A stretch of 64,000 bases of DNA from an uncultured candidate division Zixibacteria bacterium (GTDB taxonomy: Bacteria > Zixibacteria > MSB-5A5 > UBA10806 > 4484-95), in contig CAXXKA010000008.1 of the NCBI GenBank assembly GCA_963668625.2, positions 128,001 through 192,000 on the forward strand, read 5' to 3'. The translations under genes and the position numbers were made by a program. A model generated the notes under the pieces. That model worked only from the letters and a program-made list of their open reading frames with translations, did no database searches and had not been told where the DNA came from. How positions within the stretch are numbered: the first letter of the stretch is position 1; every line of letters begins with the position of its first letter. Below, piece after piece: positions 2,194 to 45,765 of this stretch.

Positions 2194-2621
2194 GTTTCAT
2201 TACTCATATTTACCCCGGATAAGTTCCTGTGTAAGCCATATTTGGCATGGTAAATAATACTATGCAAATAGTACATATTCGTCAAACAAACGAAGTTATT
2301 TATTTATCTTTTCTTGACGAAATACTGCATGAATATATCAGGCAGGAAAGGATTCCTTCCTGCTCAGTGAATTACTATTATCCGGCCATTCTTTCTCGTT
2401 GCGAAGCGCCGCTTCGCAACGTGGCTGGCATGCCGGTAAAAGACGCATGTTACATGACTCAAGAAGGTTTCCAAGCAGCGCGTGGAAAGCATGAGAAATT
2501 AAGCGTTGGCGCGGTGGCAGGAAAGTAACTATGTTATCAAAAGCTTGAGCCTCAGTCATTCGGATTGTATTGTTATTTTGACAAACATTCAACAATCAAC
2601 ACGAACAAACAGGAGGCTCAA

Positions 2622-3680
2622 ATGCCATGTTACAACAAAATCGAGCGTGAAGCCAACACTATTTACGTTGGTATTGACGTTCATAAGCGGAGTTGGCATG
2701 TAACAATGCGAACAACTGAGCAAGAGTTATGGAAAGGCAGTATTGCAGCTGATTGGGAAGTATTGAAAAAAGTATTGGGGCGTTATTCCGATTGTGACAT
2801 TTCGGTAGTTTACGAAGCCGGTTTTAGTGGTTTCTGGTTATATGACAAACTGGTAGCCTGGGGAGCGTCATGTATAGTGACTCCGCCGAGTTTGATTCCT
2901 TCTGAATACGGCAATCGGGTCAAAACTGATCGCCTCGACAGTGCCAAGCTTGCTTTACTACTTTCCCGTAGTATGCTCAAGGCAGTATGGGTACCTGATG
3001 TCGAAGCGCGTGGTCATCGCCAGGTATTGCGTCGCCGTCGCCAGTTGGTCAGCGACCGGGTCCGTATTCAATGCCGTATCAAGAGTGAGTTAGCCTGTTT
3101 CGGTCTATCTCTGCCGACAATTAGCGGCAAGTGGACGGAGACATTCGAACAGCATTTATGGCAGTTGCGTTTTAGTGATCGCTGGCAGACAGAGAGTTTT
3201 CAGAGGTTACTGACACAGTATCGGCTGGTGAGTGAATTGATTACTCAACAGACACGGTTATTGAAAGAATTGTCAAAACTGGATCGTTATCGGGAAGCGG
3301 TTGAGCGTCTACGTAGTGTTCCGGGCATCGGCTTGTTAACGGCGATGGAACTATTATTGGAGTTAGGGGACTTCAGCCGATTTAGTCGAGGAAGCCAATT
3401 GGCCGCCTACGTGGGCTTGACTCCAAGCCAATATTCCTCCGGTGACAAGGTTCGACTAGGACGAATCACCAGGATCGGCAAACCGCAGTTACGGTCGAAT
3501 CTGATCGAAGCCTCCTGGATTTTGATCAGGAAGGATCCGGCCCAGGCTCAGCGTTATCAACAGCTCAAGTGGCGGTGTGGTTCCAAACGAGCCATTGTGG
3601 CCAGTGCCCGCCGTCTACTGTTAATCGTACGGCGTCTGATGCTTGACCATCAGAGCTATCGAATCCAAACCGCAGCATAA
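2622..3680 (+). CDS. IS110 family transposase/recombinase
   Basis: DEDD RuvC-like motifs 'YVGIDVHKRSW', 'YEAG', 'KTDRLDS'; Tnp20-type motifs 'SVPGIGLLTA', 'YSSGDK..GRITRIG'; RBS AGGAGG before ATG 2622. Confidence 0.95.
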   Translation: MPCYNKIEREANTIYVGIDVHKRSWHVTMRTTEQELWKGSIAADWEVLKKVLGRYSDCDISVVYEAGFSGFWLYDKLVAWGASCIVTPPSLIPSEYGNRVKTDRLDSAKLALLLSRSMLKAVWVPDVEARGHRQVLRRRRQLVSDRVRIQCRIKSELACFGLSLPTISGKWTETFEQHLWQLRFSDRWQTESFQRLLTQYRLVSELITQQTRLLKELSKLDRYREAVERLRSVPGIGLLTAMELLLELGDFSRFSRGSQLAAYVGLTPSQYSSGDKVRLGRITRIGKPQLRSNLIEASWILIRKDPAQAQRYQQLKWRCGSKRAIVASARRLLLIVRRLMLDHQSYRIQTAA

Positions 3681-3699
3681 AAAAGAGATAATTAGTTTA

Positions 3700-3900
3700 C
3701 AATATCTGAGTTTGGAGAATGGCGAAGGAATCCTTGTGGCTTAACAACAGACCGCGCAGGAAAGGGTGTCATCTCCCCTGGTAATAATCTCGGATTGATT
3801 AATTGTGGCTGTGTTTGAGGGCCAGACCACGAATAGCAGGGTGACTATTATCGGCAATGTCTAACAGTGGCAGCATGTTGTAGTTTAAACATGGGTATTC
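3700..3900 (+). ncRNA. Candidate bridge/seek RNA of the IS110 element (boundaries approximate)
   Basis: 3' NCR contains AGGAATCCT (3726-3734), GCAG (3756-3759), ATAGCAGG (3833-3840) and GTGGCAG (3867-3873), matching the target and donor around a CT core. Confidence 0.55.
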
Positions 3901-4102
3901 TGCGTTTTATTAAGAAAAGGAGAAATCGATATAACAATACTAACCGAACAATATCACTTGACATGATACATAGCAGGATTTTTGCCACCACAGAGTTTTT
4001 TTCAACATTCGCAACGAGAAGATTAAGTCCGGGCACGAGTGAAAACATGATGAATATAGTATGGATCGAGGATTTAGAAATACAGTCAATTCGAATACGA
4101 TT

Positions 4103-4942
4103 CTAAGATAGCGACAGCACTCTAATCAGATTTTCGCAACCGCCGTTAGCGATATATTCCGAATGTTCGTTTATAGAATTAAAACTGCGTCCGCATATCT
4201 CGCGACACAATATTTTTTGGTTGGTTTCATCATAAAACGCTTTTAAAATATTCTCCGCTTCCTGATTCCGAATTGCGGACTTATCATTTCCCTGCTCTCT
4301 GTACAGGCCAAGAGTTTTTAACCATAAAGTTGCCGCCAGTGCGCCGCACCCGTTACCACTCAAGCCCATGCCTCCGGCAAATCCGGAAACCATGGTTCTC
4401 TCCTCATCACTGGCTCCCATCTTCGTAGCAATCTCGGAGGCGCAGCTTACGGGCGGCTGAGATAAATTATCAGGTATACTTGATAAGCCCTCATAGGCGG
4501 CCTCGATTGCCTCCGGGGCCCATTTCTCGGACAGGTTGGAACAGTTACGGAATTTGCCGGTTATGAAATATTTTACGATACTGAGCTTACTCGACCAATT
4601 ACAGCCAGTGATATCAAGACAATCGGAGCTGCTTGTTCTTTGCACGAATGATTTCATGAGATTTTGAGTGGCTGCTATGGCGACAGCAATCGCCTGTCCG
4701 CGATTATCGTACCTTCGATAAGCCTCCGCTCCCACGGCCAGACTCGTACCCCAGAGCATCCCGCACTGATATCCTTTCTTCATGATTCCTCCGGCAAGCG
4801 AATCTGCGGCATGTTCCTCCTCCTCTTTTGGATAGCCGAATTCGCGGTTGAGTATGTAAAAGAAAGTGCGCGAGCAGGTACCTAATTTCTTGAATGTTTT
4901 TTTTACGTCTAGAAGTGCAGTCGTTGAATCGTTTTTACTCAA
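4103..4942 (-). CDS. C-GCAxxG-C-C family putative redox protein (two tandem domains)
   Basis: 'CS...GG...GYQCGMLWG...C' and 'CA...GFAGGMGLSGNGCGAL...LCREI...C'. Confidence 0.8.
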   Translation of the reverse strand: MSKNDSTTALLDVKKTFKKLGTCSRTFFYILNREFGYPKEEEEHAADSLAGGIMKKGYQCGMLWGTSLAVGAEAYRRYDNRGQAIAVAIAATQNLMKSFVQRTSSSDCLDITGCNWSSKLSIVKYFITGKFRNCSNLSEKWAPEAIEAAYEGLSSIPDNLSQPPVSCASEIATKMGASDEERTMVSGFAGGMGLSGNGCGALAATLWLKTLGLYREQGNDKSAIRNQEAENILKAFYDETNQKILCREICGRSFNSINEHSEYIANGGCENLIRVLSLS

Positions 4943-45190: not shown

Positions 45191-45765
45191 GTAGGCCAAA
45201 ACCCCTGTGGTTTTGGCCTGTGTTGATGTAGATAGATAAGCGTCAGGATGTCGTACCTTCCATCCTGACGCAGGTGGTTTTGGTCAGATTCAAGTTTGAA
45301 AGCTATAGAGCTATCAACCCGGAGCTGTCAGGAATCCTTTCCTGACAGCTAACCGGTAGCGCGTATGTTAGCGCAGTTGAGCTTGAATATAAGCTAATGA
45401 TATGGAAGCTAAAATTAAAATAATGCTAACAGTGGTTGACATGTCTGCGGGGGTGGAGCCGTCGGGAAAGGATTCCCAACGGCTCTGGGGGAAGGACTGC
45501 CTCCGCCCCACGGCTTAAGGTATAAAAGCAAATAGTAATTTCATTGAGCGGTTAGGAATCCTTTCCTGACCGCTAACCTGTAGCGCGTTTGTTAGCGCAG
45601 CAGAGATTGAATATAAGCTAATGATATGGAAGCTAAAATTAAAATAATGCTAACAGTGGTTGACATGTCTGCGGGGGCGTAGCCGTCGGGAAAGGATTCC
45701 CAACGGCTCTGGGGGAAGGACTGCCTCCGCCCCACGGCTTAAGGTATAAAAGCAAATAGTAATTT
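45191..45765. repeat. REP/REPIN cluster upstream of RAYT, including two tandem REPINs with 224-bp period
   Basis: R3 45191-45219; R2 45240-45271; R1 inverted pairs 45323-45350/45457-45484 and 45547-45574/45681-45708. Confidence 0.85.

Follow-up and report, generated by a model that had tools for sequence, protein, structure and literature searches.

At positions 2526-3976 of the 64,000-nucleotide stretch of DNA analysed here (the window) lies an IS1111 element that very probably encodes a recombinase and a two-module guide RNA and inserts into REP-like hairpins. The identity of the element, its copy number, its boundaries, the conservation of its RNA structure and the covariation of its guide strands with its flanks were established by comparison. 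The readable guide/target specificity is novel here; REP-targeting IS1111/IS110 elements and bridge/seek RNAs are already known. Thus, of the new recombinase specificity put forward in the original prediction, the guide and target sequence is new, but the kind of system, REP targeting included, has been published (PMC11187229, PMC11208160, PMC12288879). The element is cleanly delimited, and its sequence is enough to read guide, donor, core and predicted junction promoter.

Identity, copies and ends of the element

The mobile element is an insertion sequence of the IS1111 group of the IS110 family, with the following features.

2526-3976 (+): insertion sequence, right-hand AG counted in; 1451 bp, five copies of that size
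2622-3680 (+): transposase/recombinase gene, 352 amino acids; ribosome-binding site CAGGAGG at 2610-2616
2524-2525 (+): left AG, predicted crossover core; AG here in all five copies
3975-3976 (+): right AG, predicted core, directly after the right-end motif
2529-2539 (+): left subterminal inverted repeat CTATGTTATCA, containing the -10-like TATGTT (2530-2535)
3964-3973 (+): right subterminal inverted repeat TGATACATAG
2559-2576 (+): second internal inverted repeat, left arm; partner 3931-3948
3931-3948 (+): second internal inverted repeat, right arm; partner 2559-2576

As in IS110-family proteins, the gene product joins a DEDD (RuvC-like) N-terminal domain to a Transposase_20 domain at the C terminus, in which the Ser is presumed to be catalytic. 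The Pfam matches (PF01548 at 3.8e-16 and PF02371 at 2.5e-27) and the score of 238 bits against NCBIfam NF033542, "IS110 family RNA-guided transposase" (cut-off 140), bear out the identity that had been proposed for it. No change was observed among 29 homologues at D19, E65, D103, D106, S272 or S273, residues that would be catalytic by likeness to IS621. The GL-P----S(T)G motif of the IS1111 group, as described in PMC11187229, is present in the C-terminal domain as GLTPSQYSSG (residues 265-274), in which G265, L266, P268, S272 and S273 are invariant in the same 29 homologues. Structural matches in the PDB (IS621, ISCro4) were confined to the C-terminal domain, the one to 8wt6 having an E value of 4.9e-09. 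Of the two non-coding regions (NCRs), the longer lies 3' of the gene (296 nt, 3681-3976, versus 96 nt upstream, 2526-2621), and long terminal inverted repeats and a classical target-site duplication are absent, as is characteristic of IS110 elements.

The genome contains five near-identical copies of 1451 bp, among which a single internal base is the sole difference, and one 63-bp solo right end; the element has probably been active recently. Comparison of the flanks genome-wide placed all five copies inside REP-like hairpins, in agreement with the predicted aim at this genome's hairpins of that type. Among order-level relatives, none of 23 other genomes yielded the protein at an E value of 1e-40 or better. 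Contigs from three runs of one sample, compared over 2300-4200, revealed no joints and neither a circle nor an empty site; the loose contig ends found there were known flanks of other copies, plus the solo end at 3914.

The limits given above are based on paralogous empty sites, on the ends of relatives and on a test of empty sites in a second genome. AG is the only sequence common to both junctions in all five copies, and the empty-site paralogs each contain a single AG. Among the distinct ends of relatives, AG stands directly before the left-end motif in 49 of 51 (left) and directly after the right-end motif in 53 of 58 (right). By this comparison of sequences, the crossover dinucleotide is assigned to a family-invariant AG, at 2524-25 and 3975-76. 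The original prediction was correct on the right junction and on the core there, CT on the bottom strand and AG on the top strand (3975-76). The left boundary and core had been placed at AG 2519-20, 5 nt from the crossover indicated here; given that the left crossover falls at AG 2524-25, the sequence GAAAG (2521-25) is assigned to the target, outside the element.

The empty site of the window copy is then GGTGGCAGGAA-AG-GATTTTTGCCACC, and uninterrupted paralogs run colinear through its left part (2513-2523). The exact 26-mer GGTGGCAGGAAAGGATTTTTGCCACC was found uninterrupted at C8:748632, and three other copies have revised empty sites that aligned gap-free to 40, 18 and 36 uninterrupted paralogs. 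In the genome of a relative, the AG-model empty site occurred 10 times, the reversed control 0 times and the alternative model's site 0 times. The first empty-site constructs, made without AAAGG, needed gaps against the paralogs and were rebuilt with it. Cores of GA (common to all five junctions) and GG (from alignment with L012-14) were dropped, since multi-copy relatives, paralogs in the same genome and the second-genome test all indicate AG.

The repeats CTATGTTATCA and TGATACATAG match at 10 of 11 bp with one indel, and the terminal extensions are TAA (or AGTAA) on the left and CAG on the right. IS1111 elements are described as having subterminal inverted repeats of ∼11-13 bp with short terminal extensions of 7 bp and 3 bp (PMC11187229); by comparison with that description, the extensions of this clade appear shorter on the left. 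The second internal repeat spans 18 bp with two mismatches, is conserved in position and has a score reached by 0 of 200 shuffles.

A predicted two-module RNA and its guide strands

Downstream of the gene, on the same strand, a covariance model matched in 67 of 80 homologous loci. The region and the parts of it that concern pairing are as follows.

3711-3861 (+): predicted bridge/seek RNA gene, two stem-loop modules; model R1, 136 bits
3725-3734 (+): 5' strand of the putative target loop, AAGGAAUCCU; complement of AG + GATTCCTT (top strand)
3735-3756 (+): upper stem UGUGG/CCGCG of module 1, with a 12-nt loop
3756-3766 (+): putative target loop, 3' strand (G)CAGGAA-AG-GG; sense of left target + core
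3794-3803 (+): putative donor loop, 5' strand AUUGAUUAAU; positions 6-9 (UUAA) opposite left-end G+TAA
3832-3840 (+): putative donor loop, 3' strand AAUAGCAGG; equals right-end ATAGC + AG + the right target's first base

As expected of a bridge RNA, a structure with internal loops is conserved across orthologues. In the alignment, 91.2% of cells were paired versus 70.6% in shuffles and 31-42% in slid controls, a fraction that is favoured because the alignment used (A3) was fitted to the covariance model. Covariation analysis of homologous NCRs, proposed as a check on the original prediction, revealed changes on both sides in 35 of 40 pairs (60 distinct sequences). Folding of the single sequence was no better than that of shuffles (z -0.98; equally good folds in 33 of 200 shuffles), so the structure is argued from comparison. 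The pairing that RNAalifold placed between the two donor-loop strands was taken out of the model as probable guide-guide complementarity. Searches of Rfam at E values up to 1 matched no family within the element; the sole match, D12-methyl, lies outside it at 2355-2421 and scores 20.3 bits (gathering score 57). For a member of the ISSso6 family carried on an E. coli plasmid (protein 36% identical), model R1 gave nothing credible (4 bits at best); the model derives from four close sequences, so this result carries little weight.

The strings quoted in the original prediction are all in place, namely GGTGGCA at 2513-19, TGCCACC at 3983-89, AGGAATCCT at 3726-34, GCAG at 3756-59, CTCCCCT at 3773-79, ATAGCAGG at 3833-40 and the stem TGTGG (3735-39)/CCGCG (3752-56); AGGAATCCT also recurs in a REP hairpin near 45330. 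Of the segments read there as guides, those at 3726-34, 3756-59 and 3833-40 coincide with loop strands of the conserved, covarying RNA. CTCCCCT does not, being made up of the basal stem's 3' side and linker. A further 7-mer matching the window copy's flank, GTGGCAG (3867-73), was treated as chance because its position is beyond the conserved RNA, in a spacer absent from most relatives.

Given that the strand at 3756-66 has the sense of left target plus core, its predicted partner is the bottom strand. When relatives are compared, the sequence of the loop strands follows each element's own flanks. The longest run shared by the reverse complement of the target-loop 5' strand and the right flank averaged 5.37 for cognate and 2.80 for non-cognate combinations (n = 46, core excluded), and the corresponding values for the target-loop 3' strand and the left flank were 4.06 and 2.71 (n = 36); the cognate value was reached in 0 of 10000 permutations for both matches, figures that overstate independence because the relatives are kin. 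These 46 distinct guide-target pairs constitute natural "reprogrammings" for the study of IS1111-type bridge recombinases. The first right-flank base equals the donor-loop base after the core in 34 of 46.

In the donor loop, the strands match both element ends, core included, as bridge RNAs do. The 5' strand of the window element is complementary to the left end at three of four positions, with A opposite the core G, and full complementarity was observed in 18 of 32 relatives, with the compensatory pairs GTCA/UGAC, GTTA/UAAC, GAGA/UCUC and GCAA/UUGC. In the target loop, the bases next to the core match the donor in most elements of the clade and the target in about a quarter, a minority class (9 of 37). 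The window element belongs with this minority, as the GG after the core in its target-loop 3' strand matches the target's next base, not the donor's.

Target hairpins and the source of specificity

The guide strands define a REP target of the form GCAGGAA-AG-GATTCCT(T/G), instead of the GGCAGGAATCCTGCC of the original prediction. Three sites in the window concern this target.

2513-2523 (+): left-hand half of the REP hairpin that is targeted (GGTGGCAGGAA, the left target); agrees with the guide-defined left target at 7 of 7 positions
3977-3989 (+): right-hand half of that hairpin (GATTTTTGCCACC, the right target); agrees with the guide at 5 of 8 positions
2342-2358 (+): unoccupied REP hairpin; 17 of 17 of the guide-defined 17-mer; no other site in the genome is perfect

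Agreement with the guide-defined 17-mer at the five insertion sites ranges from 12 to 17 of 17 positions; AG is exact in all. The site of the window copy contains three mismatches, though the empty perfect site lies 170 bp upstream; in copy L004, the left target is matched at only 3 of 7 positions. The AG-core form of the REP family is present at 39 sites in the genome, with 5 insertions, and 30 unoccupied sites lie within two mismatches of the guide-defined target. The family is thus under colonisation by the element, which is relevant to annotation of the genome.

The element might instead be a decayed or immobile relic whose RNA no longer guides, and features consistent with this are the A that faces the core G from the 5' strand of the donor loop, bases after the core that fit the target rather than the donor, and the empty state of the neighbouring perfect target. 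Set against these are five copies at unrelated loci that differ by one base, with the affected stem pair kept (G-C to G-U), an intact reading frame with all of the presumed catalytic residues and the same donor-loop UUAA in relative L050, so that decay is very unlikely. In IS621, cognate pairing of this kind next to the core is described as inhibiting strand exchange (PMC11208158). Given that the window element has five near-identical copies despite a configuration that would block IS621, the clade may tolerate cognate pairing, or use it for insertion/excision balance at palindromic REPs, and the second inverted repeat could add control; this idea is rather improbable. If it is true, the repeat 2559-76/3931-48 could constitute a further, so far undescribed, layer of control.

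A highly improbable reading attributes target choice to recognition of the REP hairpin's shape or sequence by the protein, with the matches in the NCR due to coincidence or to a carried REP fragment. The loop strands are partly self-complementary, like a split REP, a property that follows from the target being a near-palindrome, and the REP-targeting ISPpu9 is described as transposing without its downstream small RNA, Ssr9 (PMC12288879). This reading is at odds with the 46 elements in which differing guides, often beside non-palindromic flanks, carry the element's own flank at the same two loop positions. It is likewise at odds with subfamilies of one genome whose guides …GGGAG… and …GGTAG… match flanks ACGGGAG and ACGGTAG in four of five rows (in the fifth, L055_1263, a GGTAG guide stands beside an ACGGGAG flank), and with the covariation of the donor-loop strands with the element ends.

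Predicted circle junction, mechanism and known systems

With the guide RNA as the preferred source of specificity, the following sequence of events is proposed, in which transcription, the formation of a circle and the need of recombination for the RNA are argued by analogy. A DEDD/serine recombinase would be produced from 2622-3680 and a two-module bridge (seek) RNA from 3711-3861 just downstream. Module 1 would be the target-binding loop, with 3725-34 pairing to the top strand of AG + GATTCCTT and 3756-66 to the bottom strand; module 2 would be the donor-binding loop, with 3832-40 representing right-end ATAGC + AG and the 5' strand lying opposite the left end, (A)G-TAA. On the model of IS621 and ISEc11/ISPa11, excision would yield a circle whose ends meet at AG. 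The joined ends may form a promoter, TTGACA-N17-TATGTT, driving recombinase and RNA, and the RNA-protein complex would pair the circle with the target, with strand exchange at the common AG and insertion into REP-like hairpins of the form given above.

The circle junction is predicted to read CATAGC-AG-TAACTATG, and one element of its promoter lies near the right end.

3958-3963 (+): -35-like hexamer TTGACA of the predicted circle-junction promoter

Joining of the ends at AG sets this hexamer 17 nt from TATGTT in the window element, and a sigma-70-like promoter arises from the joined ends in 32 of 40 relatives. In the linear element, no promoter-like site was found on the + strand; expression would therefore depend on the predicted junction promoter or on read-through.

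The anatomy first proposed has a left end 5 nt longer (start near 2520-21), the core at AG 2519-20, an empty site GGTGGCAGGATTTTTGCCACC and a junction CATAGCAGGAAAGTAACTATG. GAAAG precedes all five copies and is thus readable as element DNA, and the junction is ambiguous from the window alone because GCAGGA is common to both junctions in three of five copies. This anatomy is scarcely credible, given that the pentamer is present in uninterrupted paralogs (CAGGAA(A/T)GGATTCC), that relatives differ at those positions, yet AG always adjoins the left-end motif ("always" being the 49 of 51 distinct left ends), that its promoter spacer would be 22 nt and not 17, and that the second genome favours the AG model by 10 matches to 0. 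Excision had been predicted to restore GGTGGCA-GGATTTT-TGCCACC; the genome has 0 occurrences of the corresponding GGCAGGATTCCTGCC form. The misplaced left crossover also made the circle junction five bases too long, and any PCR or donor construct taken from it would be wrong by 5 nt.

The AG-joined element with its downstream RNA resembles systems already described. The bridge RNA of IS621, as set out in the accounts of Durrant et al. 2024 (PMC11208160) and Hiraizumi et al. 2024 (PMC11208158), likewise has a pair of internal loops, in each of which two guide strands overlap a 2-nt core; the "handshake" bases by the core match the other DNA partner, as in most of the window clade, and the recombinase also has two domains. 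By contrast, the IS621 RNA is in the left end, whereas that of the window element is 3' of the gene. The top- and bottom-strand guide order is reversed, the subterminal inverted repeats of the window element are longer and its core is AG on the transposase strand and CT on the other, so that the gene-plus-RNA cassette would be inverted as seen from the core. IS1111 seekRNAs are described as having the top-strand match before the bottom-strand match (PMC11187229), and the window RNA has the same order.

Within the IS1111 group, ISPa11 of Pseudomonas aeruginosa is described as inserting into REP sequences, with an NCR downstream of the transposase gene and a seekRNA that co-purifies with the transposase and has its top-strand match 5' of the bottom-strand match (Siddiquee et al. 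2024, PMC11187229). By that description, it is like the window element in IS1111 type, REP insertion and downstream NCR and differs in the target REP. The IS110-family elements ISPpu9 and ISPpu10 of Pseudomonas putida KT2440 are described as inserting into REP sequences at AG, which is then present at both ends, and as forming circles; ISPpu10 builds a hybrid junction promoter, and for ISPpu9 the account is of a downstream sRNA that is not needed and of no junction promoter being made (PMC12288879). Compared with that account of ISPpu9, the window element has a predicted junction promoter and putative guides in its downstream RNA. ISEc11, also of the IS1111 group, is reported to form a circle with an active junction promoter and to have an essential, programmable downstream NCR (PMC11187229). 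By that report it is of similar size (1443 bp versus 1451 bp), and its target is a short linear sequence, in contrast to the REP hairpin targeted here. The parent clade comprises >2000 database homologues and lies far from named plasmid-borne relatives (∼39% identity at most), the nearest of which are ≤38.9% identical to the window protein.

Crossover dinucleotide and limits of the element

Because GCAGGA is present at both junctions, the point of insertion of the IS1111-group element is ambiguous from the window alone. Four independent lines of sequence evidence place the crossover at an AG dinucleotide, immediately before the left-end motif TAACTATG and immediately after CATAGC. Among relatives, 49 of the 51 distinct left ends and 53 of the 58 distinct right ends have AG at the crossover position, and in three multi-copy groups AG alone is common to both junctions. 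The uninterrupted REP family of the same genome reads ...CAGGAA(A/T)GGATTCCTG... at 49 sites, and the revised empty sites of three other full copies (L002, L003 and L005) align gap-free with 40, 18 and 36 uninterrupted paralogs, respectively. For the window copy, the revised empty site, GGTGGCAGGAAAGGATTTTTGCCACC, was found intact at C8:748632; the window itself spans G000:C8:128001-192000. When a Zixibacteria relative was examined, its genome gave 10 matches to the empty site of the AG model (up to 1 mismatch), compared with 0 for a reversed control; that of the alternative core model gave 0 matches in the same genome. Joining the ends at AG separates TTGACA (3958-63) from TATGTT (2530-35) by exactly 17 nt, and the same promoter-like arrangement is found at the junction in 32 of 40 distinct relatives.

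Taken together, the four lines define the element as 2526-3976, and GAAAG (2521-25) is assigned to target DNA. The original prediction, which placed the core at 2519-20 and counted GAAAG as element DNA, had an empty site that was 5 nt off and lacked these five bases, and a circle junction that was five bases too long. Its right junction and its description of the core as CT on the bottom strand both agree with the AG model.

Features of the element and its derivatives (window coordinates unless a contig is named)
2526-3976, complete element, 1451 bp in 5/5 copies
2559-2576 / 3931-3948, second internal inverted repeat, 18 bp, 2 mismatches
2622-3680, + strand, transposase gene, 352 aa, PF01548 and PF02371 (both IS110-family domains)
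G000:C6:578611-578673, solo right end (L006), 63 bp, 1 substitution

A predicted two-module RNA and its guide segments

Alignment of the window element with three relatives of 75-77% identity over their 3′ non-coding regions revealed two stem-loop modules. Of 80 homologous loci, 67 contain, directly downstream of the transposase gene and in its orientation, a match to a covariance model (R1) built from these sequences. The 13 loci without a match are mostly truncated or encode proteins of 35-53% identity; the closer loci missed, L060 (59%), L079 (55%) and L088 (58%), are cut or only partly matched. Across 60 distinct sequences, in an alignment fitted to the model, 91.2% of cells are paired, compared with 70.6% in shuffles, and changes on both sides are observed in 35 of 40 pairs. 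Sliding the partner by 1-3 columns reduced pairing to 31-42%. Folded alone, the window RNA performed no better than shuffles (z −0.98).

Predicted segments of the RNA (window coordinates)
3714-24 / 3767-76, basal stem 1
3725-34, target loop, 5′ strand
3735-39 / 3752-56, upper stem 1
3757-66, target loop, 3′ strand
3783-93 / 3841-52, basal stem 2
3794-3803, donor loop, 5′ strand
3804-10 / 3824-31, upper stem 2
3832-40, donor loop, 3′ strand

Among relatives the stems are conserved and both strands of the target loop are hypervariable. The reverse complement of 3725-34 reads AG followed by GATTCCTT, the core and right target, and 3756-64 reads GCAGGAA followed by AG, the left target and core. 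The donor-loop 3′ strand, AAUAG(C/G/U)AG, corresponds to the right end plus core. All three segments had been proposed as guides; a fourth, CTCCCCT (3773-79), instead comprises stem and linker.

Each target-loop strand was scored by its longest common run with the flank of its own element, excluding the core and taking the 5′ strand as its reverse complement. The flanks came from different genomes and sites. Mean runs were 5.37 between the 5′ strand and the right flank (non-cognate, 2.80; 46 distinct guides) and 4.06 between the 3′ strand and the left flank (non-cognate, 2.71; 36 guides). In both tests the observed mean was reached by 0 of 10000 permutations, although kinship between elements inflates such tests. 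In 34 of 46 cases, the base that follows the core in the donor-loop 3′ strand is identical to the first base of the flank. In 18 of 32 relatives, positions 6-9 of the donor-loop 5′ strand complement the tetranucleotide made up of G and the first three left-end bases; 5 more do so with one wobble, and relatives with an altered left end carry compensatory changes in this strand.

Two subfamilies on one Latescibacterota chromosome (L054, L055, L064 and L066) have guides one base apart (…GGGAG… and …GGTAG…). Their flanks, ACGGGAG and ACGGTAG, agree with the guide in 4 of 5 rows, the exception (L055_1263) having a GGTAG guide beside an ACGGGAG flank. At L055, two copies 2.3 kb apart share an identical right flank.

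Two features of the window element are unusual: the donor loop has an A opposite the core G, and the two target-loop bases after the core (GG) match the target, not the donor, a minority class (9 of 37). In IS621, such matching to the target is described as an inhibitory configuration (PMC11208158).

The distance from the end of R1 to the right-end motif is ∼107 nt in the window element (3862-3957), compared with 13-46 nt in most relatives. This extra spacer contains the right arm of the second inverted repeat. A GTGGCAG within it (3867-73) appears to be a chance occurrence. Repeats comparable to the second inverted repeat, scoring at a level reached by at most 5% of shuffles, are present in 18 of 41 distinct relatives; their left arm often begins at element position 32-34, and their sequence varies between relatives. 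The repeat could allow the 5′ UTR to pair at long range with sequence beyond the RNA, or could be bound by a protein.

REP hairpins as targets

The five insertion sites match the guide-defined 17-mer at 14, 15, 17, 12 and 14 positions, with AG exact in 5/5 and the right side better preserved than the left. The only 17/17 site in the genome is unoccupied (2342-2358, in the hairpin 2336-2368). The window copy, located 170 bp downstream of it, itself occupies a site with 3 mismatches. Further unoccupied sites, all with an AG core, number 8 with 1 mismatch and 21 with 2 mismatches genome-wide.

The target hairpin is part of a larger composite repeat (2385-2500 and 3990-4025 in the window, and genome-wide), and the L002-site paralogs align across ∼148 bp. 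The most repeated 11-mers of the genome, CGTTGCGAAGC (150 copies), GCTTGGAAACC (145) and AAGCAGCGCTT (162), adjoin the window copy.

Relation to known systems, distribution and copies

The window element has the architecture outlined for the IS110-family bridge RNA (PMC11208160, PMC11208158): a pair of loops holding four guides, which overlap a 2-nt core, together with handshake bases. It also follows the published IS1111-type arrangement, with the RNA 3′ to the gene and the top-strand match placed 5′ of the bottom-strand match (PMC11187229). REP targeting is described for ISPa11 (PMC11187229) and for ISPpu9/ISPpu10, where AG likewise marks both ends (PMC12288879), and junction promoters for ISEc11 (PMC11187229) and ISPpu10 (PMC12288879). 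When the core is taken as the point of reference (CT, opposite the coding strand of the transposase), the guides follow the same order as in IS621, and the gene-plus-RNA cassette would therefore be inverted relative to the ends by comparison with IS621. The original reading is retained: the system is of a known kind, and its specificity is new. We infer transcription, circle formation and RNA dependence of the window element.

The 352-aa protein scores 238 bits (cut-off 140) against NCBIfam NF033542, “IS110 family RNA-guided transposase”. No other genome of the order, of 23 searched, contained it at E 1e-40 or better. Among 8000 database candidates scored, at least 2088 were homologues at E 1e-30 or better, the nearest non-self ones (75-87% identity) coming from metagenomes and MAGs of other phyla; homologues of 75-77% identity occur in MAGs labelled Zixiibacteriota by the protein database. 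The absence from the order and these Zixiibacteriota-labelled homologues suggest horizontal arrival. The G+C content of the element (46.5%) is near that of the genome (45.2%) and thus gives no signal on origin.

The sole difference among the five full copies is one internal base, a C to T in L005 (G000:C1:622813-624268) equivalent to window 3770, which converts a G-C pair of basal stem 1 to G-U and so keeps the stem. The solo right end, with its breakpoint at the equivalent of 3914, is followed by the REP right half GATTCCCACCACC and preceded by an intact REP, with the full copy L002 2 kb downstream.
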